Of a stretch of DNA of 56,250 nt, positions 2,347 to 56,250 are shown in pieces. How positions within the stretch are numbered: the stretch's first letter is position 1; every line of letters begins with the position of its first letter. The position numbers and the translations under genes are program-made. Source of the stretch: Candidatus Hodarchaeum mangrovi (GTDB lineage Archaea > Asgardarchaeota > Heimdallarchaeia > Hodarchaeales > Hodarchaeaceae). The notes under the pieces were generated by a model. It did not search any database. It had not been told where the DNA came from and saw only the letters and a program-made list of their open reading frames with translations. Location of the stretch: assembly GCA_016839515.1 (NCBI GenBank), contig JAEOUE010000054.1, forward strand, positions 1-56,250. Reading direction: 5' to 3'.

Positions 2347-3735
2347 TTATGTTGATTTCTGTTCTGGTGTAATGTAATAACCAAATAATTTCTCAAGATC
2401 ATTTACCGCGTTAATTAATTCTTCTCGGGTTGTACCTTTTGAACGCTTGAACCAATGTTGTTTTAACTCGGAGTCACCGCTATGTAGTTGGATCAATGAT
2501 TTGGCCTCTTCTAGAATGTCATGAAGTTCTGGAATCTTTGGAAGACCGAATAAGAGAAGTAAGGAAGCTTTGGTGGCATCATCATCATAAGCACAATAAG
2601 TTGGAGAAATACTTGCTCCTTTAGCTAAAAAAGGCGTAAGAGATTTTTTTAGAAAAGGATCAAATTCAACCCGAGCAATATCCCGGGATCCACTCAATAC
2701 AGAAAATACCGATGAAGCAGCAGGGTTATTACCCATATTGGTAAGACTACAGTTTGAAACTGTATATTCAATTGCTGTATTGAGCTGTGATCCCATTCCT
2801 CCGACTTCAGGAAAGACAGTTAAATCATTAAACATAGCAGGAACTACAACACTATCAAGTTTTAACGCAAAATCTCCGATATCAGTAGTTGGAAGTACCT
2901 CTTTTCCTATTTCAGGGACTCCAGGCGAAAGCATTTCAGCAATTGATTCCAACGCAAGAGGATTTATTAACTCCACAAATTGTTCTTCGAGTTGAGTTGG
3001 AAACTCATTAGAATCTTGTCCTAATATTATTGGAGTTGTTGACTTTAATTTCTCTTTACTTAAATCAGCTAAATCATTTCCAGTTTGTCTGCTTAAAAGA
3101 TCTACAGATTCTCCTCTTTGCATACTAAGCACCCGTTCAAGCATTGTTCGATTAGAAAGAAGAAGTATTAGATCAGGACCCATGTTTCCCTCTTCTAGCT
3201 GCAAACGAAGAAGCTTTGACAAAGCCCAAACACTATTCACAGCTTCACTTGACTGGTTATTGAATGGTAGAACACCAAAAACATAAATGAAAATCTTCCG
3301 TTTTTCTTGTTCTGCAAATCTTTTTCTTAACAAACGAATTAACGCAGGAGTTCCTCCACAACCTGTTCCCCCTCCAAAACTAGTGAAAATGCAAAATCCA
3401 CTGATTCCTTCGTATCCGAGCGCTTGTAATTGATTGAGTATAATATCTTCTGAGCTAATAACTGCATCAAATCCCGCAGAAAATTTCCCACCCACACCAA
3501 TTTCAGCATCAGAATAAAGTAAAGTTCGTTTCGACGATATTGAATATTTTTGTCTTGCTTTAAGCAAATCACCCCGATCCGTGTTCATTACTAAATATTC
3601 ACGAATTCGTGGTGGAAGTTCACCTTTTTTAGATCTAGCTAGGTAGCTCCCTACAAGATTGCTACCACATTCCCCTAAACCTATACAGAATACCTGTGAA
3701 GTATTTGAATTAACAGTTTCCATTTTTATTACCAA
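2347..3735 (-). CDS. Divergent tubulin/FtsZ-superfamily GTPase (CetZ/FtsZ-like)
   Basis: T1 IGLGECGSNL, T2 NTD, T3 GVGG, T4 signature GGGTGCG (3355-3375), VLPF, T7-like TTDIGD; true start probably the ATG at 3723. Confidence 0.9.
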   Translation of the reverse strand: MVIKMETVNSNTSQVFCIGLGECGSNLVGSYLARSKKGELPPRIREYLVMNTDRGDLLKARQKYSISSKRTLLYSDAEIGVGGKFSAGFDAVISSEDIILNQLQALGYEGISGFCIFTSFGGGTGCGGTPALIRLLRKRFAEQEKRKIFIYVFGVLPFNNQSSEAVNSVWALSKLLRLQLEEGNMGPDLILLLSNRTMLERVLSMQRGESVDLLSRQTGNDLADLSKEKLKSTTPIILGQDSNEFPTQLEEQFVELINPLALESIAEMLSPGVPEIGKEVLPTTDIGDFALKLDSVVVPAMFNDLTVFPEVGGMGSQLNTAIEYTVSNCSLTNMGNNPAASSVFSVLSGSRDIARVEFDPFLKKSLTPFLAKGASISPTYCAYDDDATKASLLLLFGLPKIPELHDILEEAKSLIQLHSGDSELKQHWFKRSKGTTREELINAVNDLEKLFGYYITPEQKST

Positions 3736-8605: not shown

Positions 8606-10906
8606 ATGTCTGAAGAGGATATAGGTCTAACATTAAAGGTTGCTGAAGCAAACCAAAGTGATGTTGGACGAGGATTAGTAAGAATTGATTACTCAATTAT
8701 GCGTGAATTTAACCTAGAAACTGGGGATATTGTTGAAATTTCTAGCGATAGACCAGGGGGAAGGAAAACTGGTGCTTTAGTCATTCCAGGTAGAAGGGAA
8801 GACCGAGGAAAACGTATTATACGGATGGATGGTCTTATTAGAGGGAATGTTGGTACAAGTTTGGGAGAAACAGTTCGTGTTAGAGCAATTAAAAAACGAG
8901 AAGCAAAACATATTACTATTGCTCCTGCAGAGGAACGAATTCGTTTACTTGTTAAATCTGATATTATTAGAGAACGATTACAGAATCATCCTATTTCAAG
9001 AGGAGATCTACTTGTAATTACAGGGCAGATCCGTAAAATTCCACCTTCTGGAGGTACACCTGGTAAAGGGATGGATGAATTCATTTCAAGATTTTTTGGA
9101 GCATCCAGTCCAGTAAGTCTTGGGGAAATAAAAGTTGTTGTAGTTAACACCGATCCTGATGGAATTGTCACTGTAGGTGATGGAACAGAAGTCCATATTA
9201 TTGAGGAAGCTCCTAAAGATCTTCGTATGCTTCCTCGAGTCACATATGAGGATATTGGAGGATTAGCAGAAGAAATTAAAAGAGTCAGGGAAATGATTGA
9301 ACTTCCTATGAAACATCCGGAGCTTTTTGAACGATTGGGTATAGATCCACCCAAAGGAGTACTTCTTCATGGCCCACCTGGAACTGGAAAAACTCTTCTT
9401 GCCAAAGCAGTCGCTAATGAGTCGGGAGTTAATTTTGTATCAATAGCAGGACCAGAAATCATGTCTAAATTTTATGGTGAAAGTGAACAGCGTATAAGAG
9501 AAATTTTTCAACAGGCAGAGAAGGATGCTCCTTCTATTATATTTATAGATGAATTAGATTCGATTGCTGCGAAACGAGAAGAAGTTACAGGAGAGGTTGA
9601 ACGTCGTGTGGTTGCACAACTCCTTGCTCTCATGGATGGTTTGAAAAGTCGTGGAAAAGTAATTGTTATTGGAGCTACTAATCGTCCTAATGCTCTTGAC
9701 CCTGCTTTAAGACGGCCTGGGCGCTTTGATAGGGAAATTGAAATAGGTGTTCCCTCAAGAATGGGGAGATATGAAGTACTTCTTGTACATACCCGTGGAA
9801 TGCCCTTAGCAGAGGATGTTGATTTAGAAGAATATGCAGCTAAAACTCATGGATTTGTCGGAGCGGATATTGCAGCTTTAACCAAAGAGTCAGCAATGCA
9901 TACCCTACGAAAAATCTTGCCAAAAATTGATTTTGATAAACCATTATCTCCAGAGATTCTTTCAAAATTAGTTGTCTCAAAAGAAAACTTTGATGAAGCT
10001 TTGAAAATCACTGAACCGTCTGCAATGCGAGAAGTTTTACTAGAAATACCCAATATAATGTGGGAAGATGTTGGAGGCCTAGAAGATGTCAAACAAAAAT
10101 TAATTGAAGCTGTAGATTGGCCTATTACACATCCAGAAATTTTTAAGCGACATGGTGTCAGACCTCCTCATGGTATATTATTATTTGGCCCACCAGGAAC
10201 AGGAAAAACTTTATTAGCAAAAGCAGTTGCTACCGAAAGTCAAGCTAACTTTATTGCGGTCAGAGGACCCGAATTATTATCAAAATGGGTCGGAGAAAGT
10301 GAAAAAGCTGTACGGGAAGTCTTTCGAAAAGCAAAGCAAGCTTCACCTTCAATTATTTTCTTAGATGAATTAGATTCAATTGCACCACGAAGAGGAGCCT
10401 TCACTGGAGGAAGCCATGTAACAGAGAGTGTTGTTAACCAAATCTTGTCTCTTTTAGATGGTTTAGAAAATTTATCAGATGTAGTGGTTTTAGCTGCTAG
10501 TAACCGTCCAGATATGATAGATCCAGCACTTTTACGACCTGGACGATTTGATCGTCTTTTGCTTGTACCACCTCCTGATGAGAATTCACGAATGAAGATT
10601 CTTCAGATCCATACTAAAGGTATGAAACTTTCACCCAATGTTGACCTTGCTAACTTTGCACATAAGCTAGAAGGTTATGTCGGATCCGATATTGAAGCCA
10701 TATGCCGTGAAGCGGTTATGATTGCCCTTAGAGAGGATTTAAAGACTCAAAAAATAGAATCAAGACACTTTGAAGATGCAATGAAATCAGTCCACCCAAG
10801 CTCTAATGAGAAAATTATGAGGGAATTTGAAGAAATTGAGAAAAAATTTCTCGGGAGATCAGAAATTGGCCGTAAAGATATTCTTGGTTTGAAGGATTAT
10901 TTATAG
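8606..10906 (+). CDS. cdc48: CDC48/VCP/VAT family AAA+ ATPase
   Basis: N-domain plus two AAA modules (GPPGTGKT twice, IDE/LDE Walker B, DPALxRPGRFDR twice). Confidence 0.97.
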
Positions 10907-11866
10907 CTAAACTTCTTCATTATTTTCCTCAGAATCTTGTTTAGGTTTATATATATCAAGCGGCCATTGTTTTCTTATTAATTTAGTAAGTACATGGGAA
11001 TCAAATTGATCAATTTCGATTGAGGAGGAAGCAGTTTTCATCAAACGTTCTGCAATTAGCTTTGACCGGACAACCGAGTCTGAATATCCAATTATCATTC
11101 CTACGACAAGGGGATGAGTTTTAACAACCACTAATTGGAGATCAGAAGCTGTAATTACTTCCATTCCTACAGGATTTTTCGTTAATTGACTCATTGTTTC
11201 GCTTATTCCACTATTGAACTGATCTAGGATGGTTTTGGAGATATTTACAAACTTAGCAGTCCAAATCGAATGTGACTCTAAATCAATCATGATGACTACA
11301 CGAAGTTTACAACGAAAAGTTGATTCAGATCCTGATAAAACATCTGCTAACCAATCAAAAGCATCATAGAAATTCTCCCCTGTCTTTGCAGAAATTCGGA
11401 ATAATCCAACTGGACGAGAAGAACGAACAGCATGGGTTAAATTTAAATCTTTAACAATAGAATCAAATGGTCTAGCACCTGGAAGGTCAATTTTATTAGC
11501 AATGAATAGTACAGGTGCCTCGGGATTATGTTTAATGGATTCCCAAAAAGCTTCAGAAGCTTCTTTTAATCTAATATCTGCAGAGTCTAGTACGAAGACA
11601 ATGGCTGAAATTCGTTTTTCAAGAGCTGGTTTCCATAGTAGATTCCGATATATTTCTTGACCACCCAAATCAACGATATTAAATAATATCTGACGGTATT
11701 TAACAGTTCGATAATTAACACCTAAAGTTCTGGTTGTAGGGATAAATTCAGATCGTAGCATACGGTTTACAATCGTTGTTTTTCCTGCATTATCTAACCC
11801 AATGATAACAATTTCGTAGTTTATGGTTTCTTTCCCTTTGAAAATTCTACGTAGAATACTTGACAT
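10907..11866 (-). CDS. Arf-like small GTPase fused to a C-terminal longin/roadblock-like domain
   Basis: GLDNAGKTT, DLGGQ, NKID, SAK; N-terminal amphipathic helix; about 135-aa alpha/beta C-terminal extension. Confidence 0.88.
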   Translation of the reverse strand: MSSILRRIFKGKETINYEIVIIGLDNAGKTTIVNRMLRSEFIPTTRTLGVNYRTVKYRQILFNIVDLGGQEIYRNLLWKPALEKRISAIVFVLDSADIRLKEASEAFWESIKHNPEAPVLFIANKIDLPGARPFDSIVKDLNLTHAVRSSRPVGLFRISAKTGENFYDAFDWLADVLSGSESTFRCKLRVVIMIDLESHSIWTAKFVNISKTILDQFNSGISETMSQLTKNPVGMEVITASDLQLVVVKTHPLVVGMIIGYSDSVVRSKLIAERLMKTASSSIEIDQFDSHVLTKLIRKQWPLDIYKPKQDSEENNEEV

Positions 11867-16176: not shown

Positions 16177-17445
16177 TCATTTCTTATTTTGGTATTCTAG
16201 AGCTTGCTCGCTTACCAGTTTTAATAGTCCTACTCCTTTTGTTGAGTCACCAACCATGAATAATGAAATATCATTTGTACTATTCTTTGCCCATTCTAAA
16301 GCAATTGTATTAGAACCATGTTGAGACATAACAATTTGTACCAATGATGTTCGAAAAAGACGAGTACATAAATGATTGGTTTCTTTATATATTTGACAAA
16401 TAAAAGCATGTTTTTTTATTATTTGTTCATTACTTGATCTTAAAGCTGTTACTTTGTTATTAGAACATTTTAACAAGGAAACGTCTGTAACTATAGGAGA
16501 ATATCCCTTTAGAAATTCAAAACTAGCATTTATATAATCATTATCTGGAAAAAGATCTATCGCATTCTCAATAGTTGTTTTATATCTTGATATGTGAACC
16601 TTTGGTTTAAATGCATTCCGTACATTCATTTCCCATAAAATTTCTCTGAAAATTCGGAATAGACTTCCCAATCTCCCTTTTCCAGAACTAAATGCGATAA
16701 CGAAATTATTTTCTATGGCGATAAGATAAAATTGTTGATTATTATATGTTTTCCCATGAATTTCTATTGGGAGAGCATCAAAGAAAGTTCCTGATATTTT
16801 CAATTCTCCTTCGTAATCTATTATCAAAGAATGGATTTGATTTACTAGTGAGATAATCTCAGGAGATAAAATAAGATTATGAACAGCTCTTATTGTACCA
16901 TCAGATATGACAACAGTTTCCTTTTCCGTACACATTTCACTAACAATAGTTTGGATAGAACTATCAATCTCCGTCAGTAAAACTTTTTTGATGTTATTGA
17001 ATATTTTTTCTAAAATATATTCGGGATAAAACTGCTCATTATGAACTTTAATATCCTGAATCGCTTCCTGAAGTATATTTGATACTGTTAATGAGTGTTG
17101 CAATAGTTTATCTTGATGAGATCGAGGAATAAATAACATAAAACTTTCTATTCGATTTTTGCCTCTAGCACGAGAGTCCTCTATCACAAACGAATGAATT
17201 AAAACTCTACCTTGTATACCTGTCACATTAATTGGGATTATTGCTGTATCAGGTTCACCAGTAGGCTCACCAACTCCTATTGCCATTGTAAATAATGTAG
17301 TTGTCACCCCTTGTAAAATAATTTTAGGGATATTTAGTTCATGTGCGAAATAGGATTTTAAAACAGGCCCGTGTTCCTCATCAAAAATAATATGAGCTAG
17401 AAAGAATTTGGTAGGAATACTCTTACTTGAATCTAATGGATTCAT
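16177..17445 (-). CDS. Longin/uDENN-like (FLCN/SMCR8-type) domain protein with further alpha/beta (roadblock-like) modules
   Basis: N-terminal FDEEHGP and DSRARGKNR motifs; G[RV]LG/GVGLL segments resemble roadblock C-terminal helices. Confidence 0.6.
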   Translation of the reverse strand: MNPLDSSKSIPTKFFLAHIIFDEEHGPVLKSYFAHELNIPKIILQGVTTTLFTMAIGVGEPTGEPDTAIIPINVTGIQGRVLIHSFVIEDSRARGKNRIESFMLFIPRSHQDKLLQHSLTVSNILQEAIQDIKVHNEQFYPEYILEKIFNNIKKVLLTEIDSSIQTIVSEMCTEKETVVISDGTIRAVHNLILSPEIISLVNQIHSLIIDYEGELKISGTFFDALPIEIHGKTYNNQQFYLIAIENNFVIAFSSGKGRLGSLFRIFREILWEMNVRNAFKPKVHISRYKTTIENAIDLFPDNDYINASFEFLKGYSPIVTDVSLLKCSNNKVTALRSSNEQIIKKHAFICQIYKETNHLCTRLFRTSLVQIVMSQHGSNTIALEWAKNSTNDISLFMVGDSTKGVGLLKLVSEQALEYQNKK

Positions 17446-25255: not shown

Positions 25256-25952
25256 AATTAATCGACCATATGTTATTCTCTCGGCAGCAATGAGTTTGAA
25301 TGGTTATATTAGCTCGCTAGATGGAGATTCAGAGCTATCAAATAACCAAGATTGGCAACGAGTTCATAATTTACGTATGAATTCAGATGCAATCATGGTA
25401 GGGAGTGAAACAATAAAAAAAGATGATTCAAAGCTTACCGTTAAAGAGGAATATGTAAAAAAATCAGTTTTACGTCATCCAATCAGAATTGTGGTTAGTT
25501 CAAGAGGAGATATTCCTGTTAATTCACGCATAATTACTTTTCGACCTGAAATAAAGACAATTATTGGCACAACATCATTATGTTTAAAACAGAAACAACA
25601 AGAATTAGAAAATTTAGGATGTGTGGTCATTTTATGTGGAGATGGCCCTTTAGTTGATCTTGAAATGTTGTTAAAAGTATTAAAAAAAGATTTTAAGATT
25701 AATGTGTTGATGCTTGAGGGAGGTGGAACCTTGAACGTCCAAATGCTCAAATTACAGTTTATAGATGAGATTCAGCTTGCAATAGCACCAGTAATTTGTG
25801 GATCAGGAACGAATTTATTCAATGATAAGTATCTATTTCGTAATTTTAAAGATTCTCCTCTTTTCTGTTTTAAGGAAGTTAACAGCTTAGGAGATATGAT
25901 TTTTACTCGTATCGTTCTTCAATATTCTCCAAGAATCTATTCCAATGTTTAG
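25218..25952 (+). CDS. RibD-C family pyrimidine nucleotide reductase (archaeal ArfC/Rib7-like)
   Basis: AAMSLNG, VH.LR...DAIMVG..T...DD.KL, LMLEGG, APVICG; probable start is the ATG at 25236. Confidence 0.88.
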   Translation: MEKLLYMKNSKCRINRPYVILSAAMSLNGYISSLDGDSELSNNQDWQRVHNLRMNSDAIMVGSETIKKDDSKLTVKEEYVKKSVLRHPIRIVVSSRGDIPVNSRIITFRPEIKTIIGTTSLCLKQKQQELENLGCVVILCGDGPLVDLEMLLKVLKKDFKINVLMLEGGGTLNVQMLKLQFIDEIQLAIAPVICGSGTNLFNDKYLFRNFKDSPLFCFKEVNSLGDMIFTRIVLQYSPRIYSNV

Positions 25953-26866
25953 ATAAAGAAACCACTAAGTAATATAGGTACCATAAAGGAAATTACAGTA
26001 TAAATGATTATGATTACCATTGAATTTGATCCCAGAGAATCTAATTGCCTTATACTAAGGTAAATTAAGAGGATTCCATATAAAAAGATAATTAAATTCA
26101 AAATAGAAAGAAACAATTGAAATATTTCGGAAGAGGGAGTAGCTAATAAATTTTGTAATTCAGATTGACTCGCGATAGTAGCAGTTTTCGGAGATATAAA
26201 AATTAAGTTGTGTAATATATTGATTAGTTCTTCAAAGATTCCAGGAAGAGAAGCCCATCCAATAACTGTTAAATTGACACGATAACTCCTCAATTCGGGT
26301 GAAACTTGTGTTGCAAAAAGCGAGTGTAATATCCAAAGTATTAAAGCGTTTATTACCCAATTTACGATTAATCCTAATGGAACAAATAAAGCAGATATAT
26401 ATATTGAAATTTGAATGATCGAAGTCAATTCAGCGTCACTAATTTGGCCTCTAGGTAATCCTAAACTGTTAATATAATCCTCAGTAAAAGTTAAGGAAAG
26501 TTTGGAGAAAAAAATTAGTAGTCCAATTCCCGATAATATTCCCACAATTAAAATCATTATCAATGGTTGTTTTACATTAGGTCGTTGGATGATACGTGCC
26601 ATTTCTTCTTTAGGCGAAAAAAGTACTCCACGAAAGTGAGTAAAAAAAGGTAACGGTGGTTCAAACCTCTGGGATTGAATCCGATATCCTGGTTGGTATT
26701 GCAAAGGAGGACTTGGTTTTTGCATAATAAAAGGTTTGGTTAGATTACTAGTAACAGCTTGTCCGCAATTCCCACAAAAAGTGGCATTTTCTATTAATTT
26801 TGATCCACAATTCCCACAAAATTGTGGTTTTTCTGGATCAGTTATTCCTGAATTCATTAAGATCAA
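25949..26866 (-). CDS. Zinc-ribbon plus Yip1-domain membrane protein
   Basis: FCGNCG twice at the N-terminus; VLFSP.E then about 5 TM helices with GWASLP. Confidence 0.8.
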   Translation of the reverse strand: MILMNSGITDPEKPQFCGNCGSKLIENATFCGNCGQAVTSNLTKPFIMQKPSPPLQYQPGYRIQSQRFEPPLPFFTHFRGVLFSPKEEMARIIQRPNVKQPLIMILIVGILSGIGLLIFFSKLSLTFTEDYINSLGLPRGQISDAELTSIIQISIYISALFVPLGLIVNWVINALILWILHSLFATQVSPELRSYRVNLTVIGWASLPGIFEELINILHNLIFISPKTATIASQSELQNLLATPSSEIFQLFLSILNLIIFLYGILLIYLSIRQLDSLGSNSMVIIIIYTVISFMVPILLSGFFI

Positions 26867-27034: not shown

Positions 27035-27352
27035 TTAAGCTAATCTTTCTTTTAAAACAACTATTGTAAACCCAGCTGTTTCATCAGGAGTGATAATAAT
27101 CTCTGATCGTGGCATTTCTACATAAACACTTTGTAATTTCCCATGATCCAAGGCATCTGAAACACTTCGAACCTTTTTTATTAGTGCAGCGACATGTGCA
27201 CTAACCCTTTCAGCATCTGACTGTGGTAGATTACTTTGGAGTGGTAAACCATCTTCATCGCAGACTAAAATTCCTTTTACTCCCCTTCTTGCTGCTAGTC
27301 TTTTAATTGTATTTTGTAGAACTGAGGGAATAACATACTCATCTTCAACCAA
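27035..27352 (-). CDS. Roadblock/LC7 protein (dynein-light-chain roadblock-like)
   Basis: TIKRL...GVKGILVCDEDGLPLQS...EIIITPD; TTG start with GGTGA. Confidence 0.9.
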   Translation of the reverse strand: MVEDEYVIPSVLQNTIKRLAARRGVKGILVCDEDGLPLQSNLPQSDAERVSAHVAALIKKVRSVSDALDHGKLQSVYVEMPRSEIIITPDETAGFTIVVLKERLA

Positions 27353-27365
27353 GTAAAATCACCAA

Positions 27366-27713
27366 CTACCTATCTGAAGAGAGAGTCATAGTACTGCTCT
27401 CTCGCTTAACTAATGCAACTATAATAATTTCTGAATCATAATCAGGTATAATCTCAACATCTCCAACTTCTAATTCAAGTCTTATTGATCTAGCGATTTC
27501 ACGTGAGATTTCTTGTGATATTGCTCTAACTTTTCCTACTAATGAAGCTACATGAGCTGCTACACGCTCAGTATCTTCAGAAGGAAGACTTGATTGAAGA
27601 GGTAAACCGTCAGTATCTGTTAGCACTGCTCCATAAACACCTTTATGCTTTCCTACCGATTCTATAACCTTTTCTAACGCTTGATGGGATAGATATCCTG
27701 CTCCTTGGGACAT
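27366..27713 (-). CDS. Roadblock/LC7 protein, paralog of the adjacent gene
   Basis: HKGVYGAVLTDTDGLPLQS..ERVAAHVA; ATG at 27713 preferred over 27782. Confidence 0.9.
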   Translation of the reverse strand: MSQGAGYLSHQALEKVIESVGKHKGVYGAVLTDTDGLPLQSSLPSEDTERVAAHVASLVGKVRAISQEISREIARSIRLELEVGDVEIIPDYDSEIIIVALVKRESSTMTLSSDR

Positions 27714-28176
27714 TATATTTTCGACTCTTTTTTCATGAATTTTTATTTGTTTTAATAGTTTAAAATATCGTTGGAACCACATTCAATTAATAATAGGGTT
27801 CTAAACGCAACCTACTAAAGTTATATTATGTTTTAGTCTATAAATGACTTTCTAATACGATTTTTTAAAAGATTCCTATCTTTTAATATATATAAGTCTT
27901 TTCAATCTTATTTAATAAATGAAACTTTGAAATAATAGCTTATTTTAATAAATAAATGAGTTTTTATAAGAATTCTTTAAGCGAATAACAAGTATAAAGA
28001 CCTAGTTACTAATCAATAGCCTTTATAGGAGATATTAAAGGTTGATATCTTTTAGTGGAAACAATAGAACTTGAATTCATGACAAAATATCAATATTGCT
28101 AAGACTGTATCAATAAATGCTTTTCTTCAACAAAGTTTTATTAGATTATCGAAAATCTTCTCTAGTTCCACATTGA

Positions 28177-28683: not shown

Positions 28684-29232
28684 TTATTTTTTAGTATACT
28701 CCAAAATTTGCTTTCCAAGTTCGTTGAATGCTTCTTCAACGCCAGTTCCAGACTTTGCACTTGTTTCTAGGAATTTTATTCCTAGTTTAGTTGCAAGAGA
28801 TTTACCTTCTTCAGTAGAGACAGCTTCTGCTCCTTCCTCACGAAGGTCAATTTTATTAGCAAGCAAAACCACTGGTACCTTTTGATCGCGTCCCGAATGG
28901 GACCACATGTCATTTAACCATTTCTCAATATTTTGAAAGGTTAGTCTACGAGTGACATCATAAACTAACACTCCACCAAATATTTTAGTGTAGTAAGCTT
29001 TAACAACATCTTTGAAGACAGGTTGACCAGCTAAATCCCATATTTGCCAACGAATGTGGGTATTTTTAATTTCAGTATCATAAAGCGCAAAGTCAGCACC
29101 CATAGTACTCATATAATCTGTACTGAATCCTTCACCTAAGTACCTTTTCCGGAGGGAAGTTTTACCAACTGCACCATCTCCAATTAAAACAATTTTCCAT
29201 AATCGTCGATCTTCACTCATTTTCTTCACCAA
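28684..29232 (-). CDS. Rab-like small GTPase
   Basis: GDGAVGKT, YMSTMGADF, WDLAGQ, NKID, ETSAK; no C-terminal Cys; probable start is the ATG at 29220. Confidence 0.93.
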   Translation of the reverse strand: MVKKMSEDRRLWKIVLIGDGAVGKTSLRKRYLGEGFSTDYMSTMGADFALYDTEIKNTHIRWQIWDLAGQPVFKDVVKAYYTKIFGGVLVYDVTRRLTFQNIEKWLNDMWSHSGRDQKVPVVLLANKIDLREEGAEAVSTEEGKSLATKLGIKFLETSAKSGTGVEEAFNELGKQILEYTKK

Positions 29233-47955: not shown

Positions 47956-48360
47956 GTGGTTGGTATAAACTTAGAAGAGAACCTTCCCAAGGAAGCCTTT
48001 AAAAAATGTTCCCCAGAGCTAGCTTTTCGGTTTTTTGGGAGTAATGGAAAAGTTCTAGCTACAATTACCAATCTTCCCGAATTGATCTCAATTCTTCCTG
48101 AGATTCCAGCAACTATTGCTCAATTTCATGTCTTTAGAGAAACTACTTATGATTTTTTTGAGGACCGTGAGTTAGATGGCCCAGTTATAAGGTCTGATTT
48201 AGCGTTATGGATTAATTATGTCTTGGGAGATGTTGAATTATCACGTCGAATTTATGATATCGGTAAATCAATAAAAGATGCACAGCTGCTAAAAGAAACT
48301 GTTATAGAAGTACTTCGTAAACGTGAACAAGAATTAATGAATTTTATTCGTTCTCTATAA
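47956..48360 (+). CDS. DUF5752-like protein
   Basis: AFRF..., L.EL...L..I, FH, SDLALWINYVLGDVELSRRI. Confidence 0.65.
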   Translation: MVGINLEENLPKEAFKKCSPELAFRFFGSNGKVLATITNLPELISILPEIPATIAQFHVFRETTYDFFEDRELDGPVIRSDLALWINYVLGDVELSRRIYDIGKSIKDAQLLKETVIEVLRKREQELMNFIRSL

Positions 48361-48545: not shown

Positions 48546-49817
48546 GTGATTATAATGTCCTTTTTAAAAAAATTCTTTCAACCTAATCCAGAGCTTGATC
48601 TAGAGAAAGGCCAAGAAGCATATTCGAAAAAACAATATAAATTGGCCTTAAAATCATTTCAAAAGGCATATAAACATTTTCAAAAGCAAGGAGCTTTAGA
48701 AAATCAGATTATTTGTTTGGATAATGCTGCATTGAGCGCAGAGAAAGCTGAAATGCATGAACTTTCCCTTACATTATATTATGACCTACTAGATTCTCGT
48801 CTTAACTCCAAATACACCATTAAAGAGATCTTAAAAGATATAGAGCGGGGATTATTAATGGCTCGTATAAGTAAAAATCCTCCTATCTCAAAGTTTAAAT
48901 TTGAATATATGAAATTTCTTATTCATCTTGCTGAAAAAGACTTCAAGTTCTTAGCTATAATGTATAAAAAACTTAAATTTAATCCTAAGGATGAATATTC
49001 TAATTCTATACAGGTAAGTTGGAATCTTATTCACTCAAGTGATACATTTCTAGAGAAGAAAAACCTTCCAAAAACTGGTCTTCCATTCGGCTTTGCAACA
49101 ATTTTAAAAACTGCAGAACTTGTAATGCAGAGGTGTTCTTTATGTGAAGTTGAAATATCTCTTACTAATCTAGAGATGAAAGACCAAATTCAAAAAGGTG
49201 AAGAATTTTCCGTCTCTGCGAAGCTTACAGCCTATGCACCTTTAGCCATCAAAACATTAAATTTAAAAACCACTAATTTCAGGTTGATTAGTTCAACAAT
49301 GCCTGAGCTCCCTTTAAAAATGAGTACTGGGGAAAATTATACAGGCATTTTTACTTTAATACCAAATCTACCTGGAAAATGGGAAATTGGACCAATATCA
49401 TTACAATATATTATTCCTTCGGAAGAAGGTGATTATCCAGGTTTATCAAATACCCTTTCTATTAATGTTAATGATGCTACCCCAGCTCTTAAAATAAAAA
49501 TGGAATCAGATACCATAGAAGAAGATTTGGACTATTTTGTAACCATTCGTGCTGAAAATATTGGAAAACTTGCTCTTCAAAATCTAGAAATTAAGGTTCA
49601 AATCCCAAAAGAGGTTGAAATTTATGAAGGTACCTCTGAAAAGTTGATTTCAACTCTTGTCGAAGGCGAAACATTTAATTTTAGCATTGGGGTAAGATTT
49701 AGTTTAGATAAAACTCATTTTGAAGGACATATTCTACGTGCGGAAGGATTTATTGAAAATAATCAAATTAGACTAGCTAAATCATCCATTAAACTTGGGG
49801 GAAGTCACACAGAATAA
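48546..49817 (+). CDS. TPR/alpha-solenoid plus two Ig-like beta-sandwich domains
   Basis: KGQEAY..KQYKLALKSFQKA TPR; C-terminal PGKWEIGPISLQY and ENIGK..L.NL.I beta patterns. Confidence 0.7.
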   Translation: MIIMSFLKKFFQPNPELDLEKGQEAYSKKQYKLALKSFQKAYKHFQKQGALENQIICLDNAALSAEKAEMHELSLTLYYDLLDSRLNSKYTIKEILKDIERGLLMARISKNPPISKFKFEYMKFLIHLAEKDFKFLAIMYKKLKFNPKDEYSNSIQVSWNLIHSSDTFLEKKNLPKTGLPFGFATILKTAELVMQRCSLCEVEISLTNLEMKDQIQKGEEFSVSAKLTAYAPLAIKTLNLKTTNFRLISSTMPELPLKMSTGENYTGIFTLIPNLPGKWEIGPISLQYIIPSEEGDYPGLSNTLSINVNDATPALKIKMESDTIEEDLDYFVTIRAENIGKLALQNLEIKVQIPKEVEIYEGTSEKLISTLVEGETFNFSIGVRFSLDKTHFEGHILRAEGFIENNQIRLAKSSIKLGGSHTE

Positions 49818-49884: not shown

Positions 49885-50169
49885 TCATTGTATTCTTCTT
49901 AGTGCCGACATCTCTCCCTTGAAAAGGTTAATATTTGCACTATATACTGTCTGACGCATATCTTCGAGGCATGGATGTCTTTCCACATATTCGTTATCCA
50001 AAAGTCGTTTTAGTGCGTATCGAACTGACCGAGTAGAACAGGATACTCTTGACACAATTTCTTTTGAACTTAGAGGCCCTTCTTCTATAATAACGCTGAA
50101 TACTTTTTTACAGGAATCAGGGAGTTCAGCTTCTTCTACTATAGTCTCGACCGTGACAACAACCTCCAA
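49885..50169 (-). CDS. Small winged-helix (MarR-like) regulator, paralog of 19047-19325
   Basis: LPDSC..VF....EEGPLS...STRSVRYALKRL...DMRQ. Confidence 0.85.
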   Translation of the reverse strand: MEVVVTVETIVEEAELPDSCKKVFSVIIEEGPLSSKEIVSRVSCSTRSVRYALKRLLDNEYVERHPCLEDMRQTVYSANINLFKGEMSALRRIQ

Positions 50170-50289: not shown

Positions 50290-52434
50290 TTATGTTGGTC
50301 TAAGACCTAATCGAGTAATAAATGTTGAATAAAAAGCAAAGCAATCAACTGATTCCTTTTCATCTAAGGTAACGGATGAATGTACAATCCTATTTCGTAA
50401 ATTACGGAAATGTGCAATTTTTTTGTCGTTTGGAAGATCAAATCCACGTTCTCTTAATTCTGTTATTTGAACCTGAAAATCAGGTTTATCGTAAAGATTG
50501 TTAGAAACAATTTGTAAATAACGAGTAGTTAGAAGATTTTTTACTGCTGCATCTGCTTTTATCACAAAAAGTTCATAATTATTTTCTTTAAACGCATGTT
50601 TAGCTTGATTCCAAAGGACCCGAACATAATTGATATTTTTCAATGCTTGTGCAGGATCAATACTTGGGGTAATTATACCTTCAGTTTTTGTATGTGCATA
50701 ATTATTTACAATAAAATTAACACGACTAACTAATTGAGTGTAGGTAATATAAGATGAAATGTTAATAAATAACACAAAAATTGCTAGAATAACAGTAGGC
50801 CCCGCAAGACTCAGAAATAACTCTGTGAGGTTAGCAATATAGAATGGTAACAAATGTTGAGAGAAAATTGTAAAATGAATTAAATTTACAATATCAAAAA
50901 TAAAAAAACCAATCAAAAAAAACATTACCCATTCGATTCGTCGTTTTATTCTTTTACAAAACACTAAGGTTTCTGACTCTGACGACTCGATGAAATTCAA
51001 TATTCCAAATGTGGGTAAGGGGATACTTGATATCCGAATTAAAATCGAATCATTGGGAACCTCTTTTATATTAAATAATCCACTAAAATTATATTTAAAA
51101 AATTTATAGGTTTCCTCCAAAGAAAATTCAACAGTCCATTGATCTATACGATACCATCTTCCTGTATGATTAATGTATATTAATGATCCTGGTAGTGCTA
51201 GTAGAAAAATAAAGGTTAGAAATATAGAGAAGGGATTCCAAATGAAGGGTTTTGGTAATCGTACTTCATATAAGATTCCAAAGGTCCCTACTGCATTACT
51301 TTGAGGAGAAATTACAAGATAGTATTTTCCTCCATCTAAAGTATCCGTGTAATTAATTTCGCCATCTCTTAGCTCTTGGCCTTCATCTCCAATGAAGAGT
51401 CGATTCTGTCCCCATTCATCGAAAATCTCCACGATAGCAAAATCTAAAACAGAATTAGTAGTAAAATTAAATTCAAAAACACTTATTTTTGCTATTGAAG
51501 GACTAGAGTTTACCTCAAACCAGAAATAGAACTTTATTCGGGGAGTATAACCCCTTTCAAGATTAACTGAAATTGTCTTATTATGAGGAAGGATATTTGC
51601 TGTGTCAAAATTGTACCCGCTACTTTGAGCTGAAAACGAAATGTTGTATGTTCCAATAGGAAAGCCTAACTCAACTAAATGATTAATTCTTATAATATAA
51701 GTATCGGTTGACCTAGCAATCCAAGTGAAATTATATGACCCCTCTGCTGGTTTTATTTGAGCTCCTCTAATTACAGGGTTTTGTAAACCAATCGAACGCG
51801 GATATATTGTAATTTCAGAATCTAAAAGTACATTTGGTGTTCCTTCTTTCAAAAATAAGGTACCATTTTGATTTTCAGCCAAAACCACCTTCCAATAATG
51901 CACTTCATGATTGTGAGAAAAATTACCTAGGTATTGGCTTTCACTAATTAGTTCTGCAGAAGCCTCATTGAATTTAGTCTCTGGAATGGATACTAATATA
52001 GTGTAAGATTGATTGTTAGGACTCGTAGAAATACCAACTTGAATATACCAATTACCAGGACTTGATACAGTCCATGAACCCAAAAAGGGTTGAACTGGGT
52101 ATGGTGTTTCTTGAAAAATAATTTCTATCCCAATTGGATTAAACACTTTTACTGATAATTCTGATTTTATTAAGCTATTATTTGGATAAATTGAGAAAAA
52201 AACAACTTGACTTAGAGCTAGATCTTCTAAGAGCCAATTATGCATTTGAGAATCATTAGTAAAAAAGCCTTTTTGACCAATTCCATCTTCTATAACCGTA
52301 TAATTTTCAAACTGGGATTTAAAGATAGGAGCTTTTTCAAATTCATCTAATGCCGATATTAAATCCGAAGGCTGAAAAATAATAATGGAATTAATATAAA
52401 GAAGGCCAATAATCAGTATTCTTAGCTTATTCAT
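50290..52434 (-). CDS. Receptor-like membrane protein: signal/anchor, beta-sandwich ectodomain repeats, 3 TM, C-terminal HEPN-like domain
   Basis: N-terminal hydrophobic segment; three G.WYIQV / TYIIRI / GKYYLVI repeats; three TM segments; RNRIVH at 50380-50397. Confidence 0.75.
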   Translation of the reverse strand: MNKLRILIIGLLYINSIIIFQPSDLISALDEFEKAPIFKSQFENYTVIEDGIGQKGFFTNDSQMHNWLLEDLALSQVVFFSIYPNNSLIKSELSVKVFNPIGIEIIFQETPYPVQPFLGSWTVSSPGNWYIQVGISTSPNNQSYTILVSIPETKFNEASAELISESQYLGNFSHNHEVHYWKVVLAENQNGTLFLKEGTPNVLLDSEITIYPRSIGLQNPVIRGAQIKPAEGSYNFTWIARSTDTYIIRINHLVELGFPIGTYNISFSAQSSGYNFDTANILPHNKTISVNLERGYTPRIKFYFWFEVNSSPSIAKISVFEFNFTTNSVLDFAIVEIFDEWGQNRLFIGDEGQELRDGEINYTDTLDGGKYYLVISPQSNAVGTFGILYEVRLPKPFIWNPFSIFLTFIFLLALPGSLIYINHTGRWYRIDQWTVEFSLEETYKFFKYNFSGLFNIKEVPNDSILIRISSIPLPTFGILNFIESSESETLVFCKRIKRRIEWVMFFLIGFFIFDIVNLIHFTIFSQHLLPFYIANLTELFLSLAGPTVILAIFVLFINISSYITYTQLVSRVNFIVNNYAHTKTEGIITPSIDPAQALKNINYVRVLWNQAKHAFKENNYELFVIKADAAVKNLLTTRYLQIVSNNLYDKPDFQVQITELRERGFDLPNDKKIAHFRNLRNRIVHSSVTLDEKESVDCFAFYSTFITRLGLRPT

Positions 52435-52595
52435 CCATTATTCCCATGCTTTAACTTTATCTGATGAATTCTTACAAATGATCATGATTATGAATGAATG
52501 TTTACTCGATTGATTAACTTTATTTATTGTTTGAATATACCACATTCTCGAAATATAGCTACAAAAGTTTATGTTTTTTTACGTTATGGTTTGGA

Positions 52596-53240
52596 ATGAT
52601 ATTGAGTCAAAAGATACGTGTGTTTAAAAAACGAATCCAAATTTCTCAAAAAAAGTGGAATTCAGTCCAAAACGAATCTCTTCGAATAATTAACTCTATA
52701 CTTACAATTATTTCTCGTTTAACTCTAACTCAGAAAAATGGTACTTTTTCTGAAAATTTATTAGAAAAATTCCCAGAAGTCCCCGATAGAATTGCATTTT
52801 ATTTGACTGATATTATAAATCATAATATTTCCGAGCTTAACTCTTACATTCAGCAATTTACAGAAATTCTTAATGAAATGAAGAAAATTGAAAAGGAATT
52901 CAAACAGGATTTTTTTGTGTTAATAAAAAAACAAGTAATTGATCATCGTAACCCATCTTCATTAGATTTAGAGATAATTGAGCAAGCAGAGGAGACCATT
53001 CAAGAGATAGTGGATATGTATCAAGTTGAACTTGCTTTAAGAAATCAAATTTTTCATGAACTTCAAAATCCAAGTGATTTTAAACCTGCAAGAATAACAG
53101 CGAATTTAGTTCTTTGGTCTGCGGAGGTGTATATCGAATCCTCACGTATTCGTGATTTATTTGAAGGATTTTCCTTAGTTGAGAAACTTTGTGAGAAAAT
53201 TCAAACAGAAAATTCATTAAATTCTTTATCTAAATCTTAG
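52596..53240 (+). CDS. Helical protein resembling eukaryotic C1orf109 (AIRIM)/CINP
   Basis: W.S......I.S...I..RL, L.KFPEV.DR, I.EIV.MY..EL.LR..I, terminal W..E.YI; ATG at 52596 preferred (ORF open from 52527). Confidence 0.55.
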   Translation: MILSQKIRVFKKRIQISQKKWNSVQNESLRIINSILTIISRLTLTQKNGTFSENLLEKFPEVPDRIAFYLTDIINHNISELNSYIQQFTEILNEMKKIEKEFKQDFFVLIKKQVIDHRNPSSLDLEIIEQAEETIQEIVDMYQVELALRNQIFHELQNPSDFKPARITANLVLWSAEVYIESSRIRDLFEGFSLVEKLCEKIQTENSLNSLSKS

Positions 53241-53260: not shown

Positions 53261-54664
53261 TTAACTTGCATGAAAATCAGTTATTTGAAAAAAACCTTCT
53301 AAAGCTCCAGATTTATAACCACTTACCAACAATCCCTGAATTTTATCATTAATCGCATATTCTGGCTCACCTTTCTCAAGATATTTTTTAACTAGATTCA
53401 TAGAAAACAGTAAAGTACTTTTTGCTACAGATTCCTGTCCTATAGCACAAACTGCCACTCCTCTTAACTGAATATCTGAAGGACCGGCTTGAGATAAAAA
53501 CACACATTGTTTATCACCAGCTGAAAGAAAATCAGGAGTATGGCCAATTAAATCTGAACTCATTGATTGAATAGCAGAAAATAAACCTGTGTAAAGACAA
53601 ACTTCTTGGCCTGCAGGTTTATGACTTGCAAAAAGAGGGAGTCCGCTATCATCAAAAATATAAACTTCAGAAGTGGAAAATATTCTACTCAAAACATTAA
53701 ATCGTTCCTCTTCCTCTGAATATTCATTATCTGGGGGATTTTTTTTATCGTGATTGTTTGAACATGGTGTTTTTTGTTGAATTTCAATTAACTCATCAAA
53801 TCCACTATAGCGGGGTAAGATACTGTTAACTGGATTAAAATCAGTAAGAATTAATGAGACATTATACTCTTGAACTTCGGAATTAATTGCATTTGTAAAT
53901 CTAATTTCAATCTCCTTGCCAAATGTGCTTATTAATTTTTTTGTGATTTTATTCATAGAATGAAGACTTATTGGTCTTGATGAGATGACAGAGATAAAAA
54001 TGATCTGTAACTTTTCAAATTCTTCTGGGAAGATATTTACTAGATGATCACCCACTGTTGTTATTGCATCTTGTAAGGCCTCATCTAAATCCGTTGAATA
54101 AGCTATTCCCTCTAGTAAAATTTTAGAATTCCCAAATATTTGAATTAAGTCAGGAAAGGAAATACCCAATCCAGAATTTGGATTTAAGCTTGTAATTAAA
54201 GAATCTAAAAGAATTTTGAACTTTTTACGATTATTTTCAGAAGAAAAATCAAAATGAAAATAACAGGGACCGAAAAAATTGATTTGTTGAGTTTTTAATC
54301 CTGGTCCTGTATCAAAAAAGAGAGGAATTGAATCTGAAAATTCAATTGATGCTAGAATACTTCCTAATATTTGAAAAATTCCAATTTCCGATGAATTAAA
54401 AACAAAAAAAATGAAATAAGAATTTAAAAGAAATTGCACTTGAGAAAGCATTTTCTCTGAATCAAAAATTACCGCTTGATCACAGCTATCCGTTGGTAAA
54501 GTACTTGGAGCTAATAAAAGGAGTGGTATCCTAGATTCAGTTTTTGAATTTAAAAACTCATTTAATAACCGGAGCTCACTACTTACAGCATCCCCAACAC
54601 ATACAATTTTCCCTCGTGGACGAAAATATTCTATTAATGAGTTATTTTCATATATAATGCTCAA
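53261..54664 (-). CDS. Degenerate FtsZ-fold protein fused to a longin/roadblock-like domain
   Basis: GLGISFPDL (compare FtsZ GLINLDFADV), EALQDAI, ISLHSMNKI, IRFTNAIN..YNVSLILTDF match the FtsZ C-domain; no GGGTG; C-terminal VYIFDDSGLPLF..LYTGLFSAIQSMS. Confidence 0.65.
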   Translation of the reverse strand: MSIIYENNSLIEYFRPRGKIVCVGDAVSSELRLLNEFLNSKTESRIPLLLLAPSTLPTDSCDQAVIFDSEKMLSQVQFLLNSYFIFFVFNSSEIGIFQILGSILASIEFSDSIPLFFDTGPGLKTQQINFFGPCYFHFDFSSENNRKKFKILLDSLITSLNPNSGLGISFPDLIQIFGNSKILLEGIAYSTDLDEALQDAITTVGDHLVNIFPEEFEKLQIIFISVISSRPISLHSMNKITKKLISTFGKEIEIRFTNAINSEVQEYNVSLILTDFNPVNSILPRYSGFDELIEIQQKTPCSNNHDKKNPPDNEYSEEEERFNVLSRIFSTSEVYIFDDSGLPLFASHKPAGQEVCLYTGLFSAIQSMSSDLIGHTPDFLSAGDKQCVFLSQAGPSDIQLRGVAVCAIGQESVAKSTLLFSMNLVKKYLEKGEPEYAINDKIQGLLVSGYKSGALEGFFQITDFHAS

Positions 54665-54922: not shown

Positions 54923-56250
54923 ATGTCATTTGAGATTTTTAAAGTAGAAGGATGCGGGAGATTGGGACAATTCAAAGATATTCAATTTGAAACTCCAAAT
55001 TTATTTTTATCACGTTATTATTCTGAAAATGAATCACAAACAACACTTAACCACACTCTTAATGAGATTAAAAAGCTTTCAGGGATTCAACCTGCCTTTA
55101 AAATGGACATACCAGCCGATTACAGCATTAAATGTATTAATTATCCTTCATTACAAACTCAGAATAAAAATATTGATGAACTAAAAGCATTGGAAGATTT
55201 ATTTCCTATAAATACTTTAGAAACATCTGTACCTACCTTTCATGTCATTCCTTGGGACACTTCTAGTCTATATCTTAATGAAGGTGAAAGTTTCATTGAA
55301 AGACTTAATCAATTAAAGAAAATAGACATTAGAAATTCAAATTTTTTTGTATTAAATGTACCCTTTCAACAGAAAGAACTCACAATACCTCCCCCTTCTT
55401 TTGTGTCTGTTCTTATGCTTGGTGATATCTCTTCTCTCCTAAATCATCCAAAATTCTTATTACAATATATTCGATCAGTTCAACAAATAACCCCTCCTAA
55501 TGTAACGCTTTTTGCTCCAATGGTACCAAGTAGTTATATGCCGTTTTTAAATTATTTGGGTATTGATTTCTTTGATTTTACATATTTAGACATATTTTAC
55601 TCAGATACTAAAATAAAAAATGATTTTATTCTAGATTTAAACCCAACTACTAAAAATTTTACAGATGTTCTCACATTAATTAAGAGAGCTATTGATTCAG
55701 GAAATTTAAGAAATTTAGTTCGAATCTATGCGAATTCAAATCCCTCTTTAAAGACAATGTTAAAATTAGCTGATTCCATAAACATTTTTGAAGAAAATAC
55801 TCCTATTTATTTTAAGAAAAAGATGTTTTGCACAGATGAAACAGATTTAACTAGAGTAGAAGTTATAAGATTTCGTGAAAGGATCGCTTCACGGTATTTT
55901 CCTCCCTCTAAATTGAAAGGTGTAATTTTTCTTCCATGTTCTGCAAAGAAACCTTATTCAACTTCTAAATCCCATCGATTGTTTCATAATGTAATAAAAC
56001 GAACCTTAAAAAGTAAACGTCATTCAATTTTAGAATTAATACTTACTAGTCCTCTGGGGGTTGTTCCAAGAGAACTTGAATATACTTTTCCTGCAGGTCA
56101 TTATGATATTCCAGTAACTGGCCATTGGAGTGATCTAGAAAAAAAACATCTTGCCCAAGATATTAGTTCGATTCTGTCAAAAATTGACTTCTCAATTCCT
56201 TTAGTTGGATATGTAAAAGGATCTGAAAGAAAAGTCTTAAAAAAAGTTTG
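54923..56250 (+). CDS. arcS: Archaeosine synthase ArcS/TgtA2-like, truncated by the window end
   Basis: AGGAG SD plus ATG at 54923 (MSFEIFKVEGCGRLG); LPCSAKKPYS.SKSH and TSPLGVVPRELE..PAGHYDIPVTG.W are in the same frame; absent from the ORF track because no stop lies in the window. Confidence 0.88.
   Translation, partial: MSFEIFKVEGCGRLGQFKDIQFETPNLFLSRYYSENESQTTLNHTLNEIKKLSGIQPAFKMDIPADYSIKCINYPSLQTQNKNIDELKALEDLFPINTLETSVPTFHVIPWDTSSLYLNEGESFIERLNQLKKIDIRNSNFFVLNVPFQQKELTIPPPSFVSVLMLGDISSLLNHPKFLLQYIRSVQQITPPNVTLFAPMVPSSYMPFLNYLGIDFFDFTYLDIFYSDTKIKNDFILDLNPTTKNFTDVLTLIKRAIDSGNLRNLVRIYANSNPSLKTMLKLADSINIFEENTPIYFKKKMFCTDETDLTRVEVIRFRERIASRYFPPSKLKGVIFLPCSAKKPYSTSKSHRLFHNVIKRTLKSKRHSILELILTSPLGVVPRELEYTFPAGHYDIPVTGHWSDLEKKHLAQDISSILSKIDFSIPLVGYVKGSERKVLKKV

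Follow-up and report, generated by a model that had tools for sequence, protein, structure and literature searches.

A single-copy core gene of Hodarchaeales encodes a membrane-anchored protein with a divergent DUF4145-like HEPN domain

A 56,250-nt stretch of Candidatus Hodarchaeum mangrovi (contig JAEOUE010000054.1, assembly GCA_016839515.1), referred to as a whole as the window, carries a gene for a membrane protein that ends in a HEPN-fold domain. The gene (50290..52434, minus strand, as are all of its features given below) starts with ATG, runs for 714 codons plus a stop, and has 63 homologues. A 19-residue Kyte-Doolittle scan found four hydrophobic segments in the product (residues 1–22, 396–423, 500–525, and 536–566). 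The first of these (52369..52434) is an N-terminal signal peptide or signal anchor with a hydropathy maximum of 1.78 and a modeled helix at residues 2–19. Three beta-sandwich domains follow, named D1 (residues 40–158, 51961..52317), D2 (residues 159–278, 51601..51960), and D3 (residues 279–395, 51250..51600). All three are placed outside the cell and were delimited with the structure model and hhalign, and for D1 also with Foldseek; D3 has a PPC-like 'GxYYLxI' end. Transmembrane (TM) helix 1 (51166..51249), identified from hydropathy, model, and charge flanks, leads from out to in and into a 76-aa cytoplasmic alpha/beta insert of beta-alpha-beta4 type (residues 424–499, 50938..51165). TM helix 2 (50860..50937; hydropathy and model) runs from in to out, and TM helix 3 (50737..50829; hydropathy) returns from out to in, with the model continuing this last helix to residue 584. 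The linker behind it (residues 567–593, 50656..50736) is the least conserved part of the protein. A cytoplasmic HEPN-fold domain resembling DUF4145 (residues 594–714, 50293..50655) completes the chain.

A full-length AlphaFold2 model was built on 32 homologues, the set to which conservation values below refer, and reached a mean predicted local distance difference test score (pLDDT) of 81.8 and a predicted template modeling score (pTM) of 0.51. The model is all-beta at residues 45–392, has helices at 401–423, 499–524, and 536–584, a beta-alpha-beta4 unit at 430–496, and five helices at 594–708. Confidence is low for the stretch after the N-terminal helix (residues 20–39) and in the linker (pLDDT <50 at 583–590). 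Within the insert, strands are modeled at 430–435, 454–459, 463–468, 475–483, and 489–496, with one helix at 439–450. The insert is 63% identical within the main clade and has a mean of 12.7 lysine and arginine residues (K+R) vs 6.8 aspartate and glutamate residues. It had no family match and no match in the ESM Atlas (best score 0.78, with 0.9 as the lead level); the HEPN part also stayed under that level, with a best score of 0.85. The whole protein matched no family in Pfam (E ≤ 1), NCBIfam, PADLOC, or PHROGs. The initial annotation, made from the sequence alone, had described an N-terminal signal, beta-sandwich repeats, one TM segment, a loop, and two further TM segments, and this anatomy agrees with the four hydrophobic segments, the 76-aa loop, and the all-beta region of the model.

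Sequons and charged flanks were used to orient the chain in the membrane. There are 17 N-X-S/T sequons in total, 12 of them within residues 21–395, where shuffling predicts 4.2; the abundance of sequons in the outer part, also remarked on earlier, therefore exceeds expectation. None occurs in residues 570–714 (1.5 expected by shuffling). Over the homologues, the ectodomain has 3.29 sequons per 100 aa and the C-terminal domain 0.08. The 76-aa loop has three sequons here vs 0.8 expected, with a mean of only 1.0 across homologues, and the loop sequon near P460 is not conserved as a sequon among them. Mean K+R counts are 2.7 after TM helix 1, 4.1 before TM helix 2, and 1.2 after TM helix 3, and the short loop between TM helices 2 and 3 has a mean of 0.1. 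Because of the K/R flanks, the sequon distribution, and the nearly K/R-free short loop, the N-terminal region and the short loop are assigned to the outside and the 76-aa loop and C-terminus to the inside. This topology is well indicated and, in agreement with the initial annotation, puts the HEPN domain on the cytoplasmic side. The ectodomain is evidently glycosylated, to judge from its sequons.

The three ectodomain modules are homologous repeats in comparisons of D1 with D2 (hhalign, 90.8%) and D2 with D3 (95.5%), with only 5.8% for D1 with D3. Foldseek searches with the full model matched ColG collagen-binding (PPC) domains (E 3.0e-10), CUB domains, other jelly rolls, and the ectodomains of SIDT1/2, all with whole-chain template modeling scores of only 0.1–0.2, which is a generic beta-sandwich likeness. 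A relationship to SID-1 was considered on the basis of the SIDT1/2 matches and is not read into scores of this size. A distant homologue, P0069, matches Pfam PPC at E 3.6e-5 (25.0 bits vs a cut-off of 25.9). As modeled, the three tandem modules are PPC/CUB-like beta-sandwich domains.

The C-terminal domain was modeled separately (pLDDT 88.2, pTM 0.81) and forms the helical up-down bundle of the HEPN fold. All of the first 10 Foldseek rows for this model are HEPN or HEPN-related. VIA-align gave the highest value for the AF_0298 HEPN domain (2hsb; 12.0, root-mean-square deviation 2.5, 116 aligned), followed by the HEPN domains of sacsin (3o10; 10.6) and AbiA (8oz7; 10.3), TT1696 (1ufb; 10.0), a HEPN domain protein (4nqf; 9.8), HI0074 (1jog; 9.7), Csm6 (8jbc; 9.5), and HepT (5yep; 9.3). 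The motif R-x2-R-N-x3-H, here RNLRNRIVH (residues 677–685, 50380..50406; positions 100–108 in domain-model numbering), lies in the stretch FRNLRNRIVHSS (residues 676–687). When the domain was aligned with 12 bona fide DUF4145 domains taken from genomes within the class (hhalign, 93.8%, E 1.8e-7, 98 columns), R677, N681, and H685 matched the R, N, and H that DUF4145 conserves, and R680 matched a G/R column; some true DUF4145 members likewise read R-x2-R-N-x3-H. R677, R680, N681, H685, S686, and S687 are invariant in 32/32 homologues, which range from 24% to 88% in overall identity. Across the wider domain family, all 18 rows keep the R, and N104 (domain-model numbering) is nearly invariant. Because the fold matches are consistent and the DUF4145 profile match aligns the motif, the C-terminal domain belongs with the DUF4145-like HEPN domains as a divergent member whose motif is intact, and the HEPN call of the initial annotation is upheld by the fold.

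Sequence searches against solved structures added little. The domain alone gave two matches, both with E ≥ 0.81 and neither useful, and a clean domain profile gave a best E of 0.29. Matches of another domain profile to Toll-like receptors and internalins were rejected as an artefact of a leucine-rich repeat (LRR) overhang in one row; the sole other match of that contaminated profile was 1nig (E 0.0097).

The HEPN domain is the most conserved part of the protein. Identity within the main clade is 80% for the HEPN domain and 47% for the ectodomain, and in comparisons with three distant members it is 54% and 20%, respectively.

We searched for relatives in protein collections and in genomes of the phylum. 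A collection of 5.8 billion proteins yielded 63 relatives, and 1.84 billion cluster representatives yielded 40. All named relatives are hypothetical proteins of Hodarchaeales, Heimdallarchaeota, or similarly labeled metagenome-assembled genomes (MAGs). The gene occurs as one copy in its own genome, in 21/21 other genomes of the genus-level group, and in 2/2 of the sister family, for a total of 24/24 genomes of the order, and all 59 genomes searched from the five remaining families of the class lack it. When 400 genomes of the phylum were searched with a domain profile, matches came from 44, comprising the 24 of the order, four of five genomes of another family (f28), which carries a ~345-aa form, and scattered weak matches. 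Bona fide DUF4145 is patchy by contrast (12/83 genomes). The gene is thus a lineage-specific, vertically kept, single-copy core gene of Hodarchaeales.

The same HEPN subfamily also occurs in other architectures. These are LRR-HEPN (P0099), Zn-ribbon-HEPN (P0094), TM-HEPN (P0097), stand-alone forms, and a Zn-ribbon form with four TM segments. The last is a sister family of ~330 aa from other Asgard MAGs (P0102 and P0112–P0122) that has a Zn-ribbon, approximately four TM segments, and a domain of this HEPN subfamily; four of the five f28 genomes carry it. Its motif now reads R-E-x3-K, which is invariant in 9/9 aligned members. The HEPN subfamily behaves as an output module behind varied candidate sensor or input modules, and strict retention of the motif in the Hodarchaeales protein is meaningful because the motif has been lost in the Zn-ribbon form with four TM segments.

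The domain is predicted to pair with a second copy of itself (ipSAE 0.48 vs 0.11 for the best control). In calibration, the ipSAE mark was reached by 20 of 30 proteins solved as same-chain pairs and by one of 23 solved as single chains. Three dimer runs had 100% contact agreement and pLDDT values of at least 87. The domain's pass as a homodimer may reflect its likeness to HEPN dimers that are already solved. Confident contacts involve domain positions 17, 20–21, 24, 64–65, 85–89, and 130–135 (residues 594–601, 641–642, 662–666, and 707–712), and the interface takes in the invariant G664, D666, and R708-L709-G710. By hand count, interface residues are not enriched for invariant columns (7/17 vs 42/121 for the whole domain). 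With this interface, the N-termini of the two chains would lie close together, in keeping with a parallel pair tethered to the membrane.

The HEPN gene is flanked by genes for a winged helix-turn-helix (wHTH) protein, a C1orf109-like protein, a BatD/TPR-like protein, and a 467-aa protein without a family. Flanking genes are kept in order at 15/15 same-genus loci; these conserved flanks reflect general synteny and are no proof of functional linkage. Downstream lies the 94-aa, MarR-type wHTH gene (49885..50169, minus strand; MarR E 5.4e-7). The initial annotation had noted a wHTH gene at this position, and the gene is indeed present here, but it occupies the position in only nine of the 15 same-genus loci and is therefore rejected as an obligate partner. 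In the other six, by coordinates, the HEPN gene directly abuts the BatD/TPR-like gene (48546-49817, plus strand; 423 aa, BatD E 2.4e-4, sub-cut-off), which is convergent with the HEPN and wHTH genes. Adjoining it is a gene for a DUF5752 protein (47956-48360, plus strand; E 6.8e-7), and both of these genes are kept at 15/15 loci. The C1orf109-like gene on the other side (52527-53240, plus strand) is divergent from the HEPN gene and is likewise kept at 15/15 loci. It encodes a 237-aa CA109-like ribosome biogenesis protein (Pfam E 9.6e-11, 42.2 bits vs a cut-off of 27), a possible eukaryote-signature protein.

Beyond it, the 467-aa protein (53261-54664, minus strand) has no Pfam family. Its C-terminal ~100 aa resemble a protein encoded next to the HEPN gene at a sister-family locus (L036 6488-7975, plus strand; 30% identity, E 8e-8). 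A gene for a DUF5591 protein (54923-56248, plus strand; E 2.8e-38) runs off the window. Its homologue at a sister-family locus is again within ~2.3 kb of the HEPN gene; this homologue also has PUA and weak TGT domains and looks ArcS-like. Housekeeping and eukaryote-like genes make up the rest of the window, with no defence island. A family scan placed the eukaryote-like cluster at 2350-3735, 8606-10903, 10910-11866, 16180-17445, 25952-26866, 27038-27782, and 28687-29232. These genes encode a Tubulin/FtsZ-family protein, Cdc48, an Arf-family GTPase, a folliculin-like protein, Yip1, and two Roadblock/LC7 proteins adjoining a Ras-family GTPase.

We read the protein as a membrane-tethered HEPN endoribonuclease that is coupled to the state of its putatively glycosylated ectodomain and has a regulatory or quality-control role at the inner face of the membrane, and we put the probability of this reading at roughly one half. 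The observed basis is the gene itself, its domain order, the topology indicators, the HEPN fold, the conservation of the motif, the distribution, and the synteny. RNase activity, ectodomain coupling, substrates, and an oligomeric switch are what we infer. The ectodomain would bind or sense something outside the cell, and the signal would pass via the TM helices and the long extension of TM helix 3 to the HEPN domain. That domain, as a metal-independent endoribonuclease, would then cleave RNA at the membrane, such as transcripts that membrane-bound ribosomes are translating. The role would be one of cellular regulation or quality control and not that of an optional antiviral suicide module.

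Several observations weigh against RNA cleavage by this domain. Its Pfam matches are below the gathering cut-offs, both for HEPN_RiboL-PSP (E 0.0046, 17.3 bits vs 28.4) and for DUF4145 (PF13643; E 0.025, 15.1 bits vs 23.1). The best relative, P0097, reaches 21.8 bits on DUF4145 and is still short of the cut-off, and among 21 domain-family members scanned at E ≤ 0.1, HEPN_RiboL-PSP was matched by 16 and DUF4145 by five, all sub-cut-off. The helix-2 E/Q column of DUF4145 aligns with the invariant K632, four residues (one helical turn) after the invariant D628; the initial annotation had rightly pointed to Asp/Lys (ADAAVK) in place of the upstream HEPN Glu. It had also looked to a dimer in which the RxxxxH motifs of two chains might meet. 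The interface listed for the predicted homodimer leaves out motif positions 100–108, with unlisted residues counting as uncertain. In the model, the motif appears to lie across the bundle from the interface, at the distal end of helix 4. Because of this omission and the helix order, the dimer model leaves a composite two-motif active site unsupported. No conserved partner gene or operon turned up across the order, nor did a substrate, and the two sister-family loci have different neighbors (radical-SAM enzymes, a ribbon-helix-helix protein, a Zn-ribbon/RING protein, and the ArcS-like gene).

The alternative that survives best is that the HEPN domain is non-catalytic. The protein would then be a surface receptor, adhesin, or envelope protein, with the domain serving to bind or scaffold a nucleotide, a protein partner, or RNA. 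Besides K632 and the interface that omits the motif, it is favored by the structures closest to the domain, AF_0298 and sacsin HEPN, neither of which is known to be an RNase. Conservation extends over the whole domain surface (80% identity), beyond the motif alone, and the Zn-ribbon-TM sister family is highly conserved despite its R-E-x3-K motif. Parts of PMC3710099 also describe many non-catalytic HEPN-fold domains. Set against these points, R680, N681, and H685 are invariant in 32/32 homologues, down to 24% overall identity, and the motif residues align with those of DUF4145. The motif usually decays where a HEPN domain loses catalysis, as it has in the same Zn-ribbon-TM sister family. We consider the non-catalytic alternative possible but doubtful.

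The initial annotation had proposed a ligand- or virus-triggered transmembrane RNase. The receptor-like architecture that it described is supported. In the antiviral version, detection of a virus or of envelope damage by the ectodomain would lead the HEPN RNase to shut the cell down in abortive infection. An exposed and faster-evolving ectodomain (47% identity) would suit contact with viruses, one relative has the LRR-HEPN architecture, and sections of PMC3710099 assign DUF4145-like and most prokaryotic HEPN domains to conflict systems. However, a virus trigger is disfavored because the gene is a single-copy core gene (24/24 genomes of the order) with stable, housekeeping synteny and without a PADLOC or PHROGs match, and its distribution differs from the patchy one of bona fide DUF4145. 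PADLOC and PHROGs searches with the gene and its four nearest neighbors returned nothing beyond a weak wHTH match and coiled-coil noise. Family scans of the neighbors found no MNT or cas gene adjoining the HEPN gene, as the initial annotation had stated, and no antitoxin-like partner. An antiviral device is therefore quite unlikely.

The preferred reading of a membrane-tethered regulatory endoribonuclease has a bolder form. In it, the protein would do at the plasma membrane what the HEPN RNases Ire1 and C6orf70 do at the membrane of the endoplasmic reticulum (ER), sensing exoplasmic stress or occupancy with its glycosylated beta-sandwich ectodomain and cutting membrane-localized mRNAs, or another specific RNA, on the cytosolic side. 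This would amount to an archaeal form of RNA decay in response to secretion or envelope stress that predates or parallels the unfolded-protein response, which we regard as improbable. Genuine descent shared with, or ancestral to, the KEN domain of Ire1 (Pfam Ribonuc_2-5A) or C6orf70/ERMARD is hardly credible for the HEPN domain. In its favor, the topology is equivalent, with the sensor exoplasmic and the HEPN domain cytosolic, the host belongs to Hodarchaeales, and the window is rich in eukaryote-like genes. Against it, the protein lacks a kinase domain, and at E ≤ 10 RiboL-PSP-HEPN and DUF4145 alone matched, without KEN or DUF4209. Neither KEN nor DUF4209 is among the 25 of 32 families listed for the 21 domain-family members, no Ire1 or RNase L chain is among the best 50 fold matches, and the nearest sequence family is the prokaryotic DUF4145.

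Hodarchaeales are placed close to the root of eukaryotes. To our knowledge, no membrane-tethered HEPN RNase from outside eukaryotes has been characterized at the bench, and we know of such proteins there only from a 2013 prediction for bacteria. The family described here is a clean test case, being universal and single-copy in one Asgard order, with a large sensor-like ectodomain and a HEPN domain as by far its most conserved part. An active domain would show the coupling of a surface sensor to RNA cleavage to be a core cellular function in archaea closely related to eukaryotes. An inactive one would be informative too, as a case in which an intact HEPN motif is conserved for a non-catalytic purpose. 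The soluble domain of ~125 aa is tractable for biochemistry.

Among known systems, DUF4145 shares the helical HEPN fold and profile homology with R, N, and H aligned. It differs in that the protein described here scores below the family cut-off, has Lys at the helix-2 E/Q position, and is a core, single-copy, membrane-tethered protein, whereas DUF4145 is patchy and defence-linked. HepT-MntA (HEPN-MNT) differs from the Hodarchaeales protein in having an adjacent MNT gene; the latter is membrane-anchored, core, and not mobile, and its motif is followed by S-S instead of x-Y. Ire1 and RNase L share only the layout of an exoplasmic or lumenal sensor with a cytosolic RNase domain of the HEPN superfamily. 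Ire1 is activated by oligomerization. Here there is no kinase or pseudokinase, three TM helices take the place of one, and the region before the HEPN domain consists of TM helices and the 76-aa insert in place of a kinase. The Ire1-like logic suggested by the initial annotation thus holds for the layout, as an analogy only, and does not extend to a kinase, a KEN match, or the best 50 fold matches.

A literature search found no paper on this Hodarchaeales membrane HEPN family. Parts of a 2026 paper (PMC13607799) mention an unplaced archaeal HEPN-like dark domain, EPP00023009, which could not be matched to this domain. Anantharaman et al. 2013 (PMC3710099, section 15) described three bacterial groups of TM-linked HEPN domains, one of them overlapping DUF4145, and proposed that these proteins link surface sensing with cleavage of RNA on the inner membrane face, likening this to Ire1 and C6orf70. 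The concept of a surface-sensing membrane HEPN RNase is therefore not new. The bacterial proteins are alike in having TM segments and a cytoplasmic HEPN domain, but they have one or two TM segments, with a WP-signature TM module, an alpha-helical outer domain, or a Zn-ribbon. The protein described here is archaeal and order-universal, with an evidently glycosylated ectodomain of ~370 aa. What is new is the archaeal family, its combination of a triple beta-sandwich ectodomain with three TM helices and a cytoplasmic insert, and its status as a core gene in Hodarchaeales.

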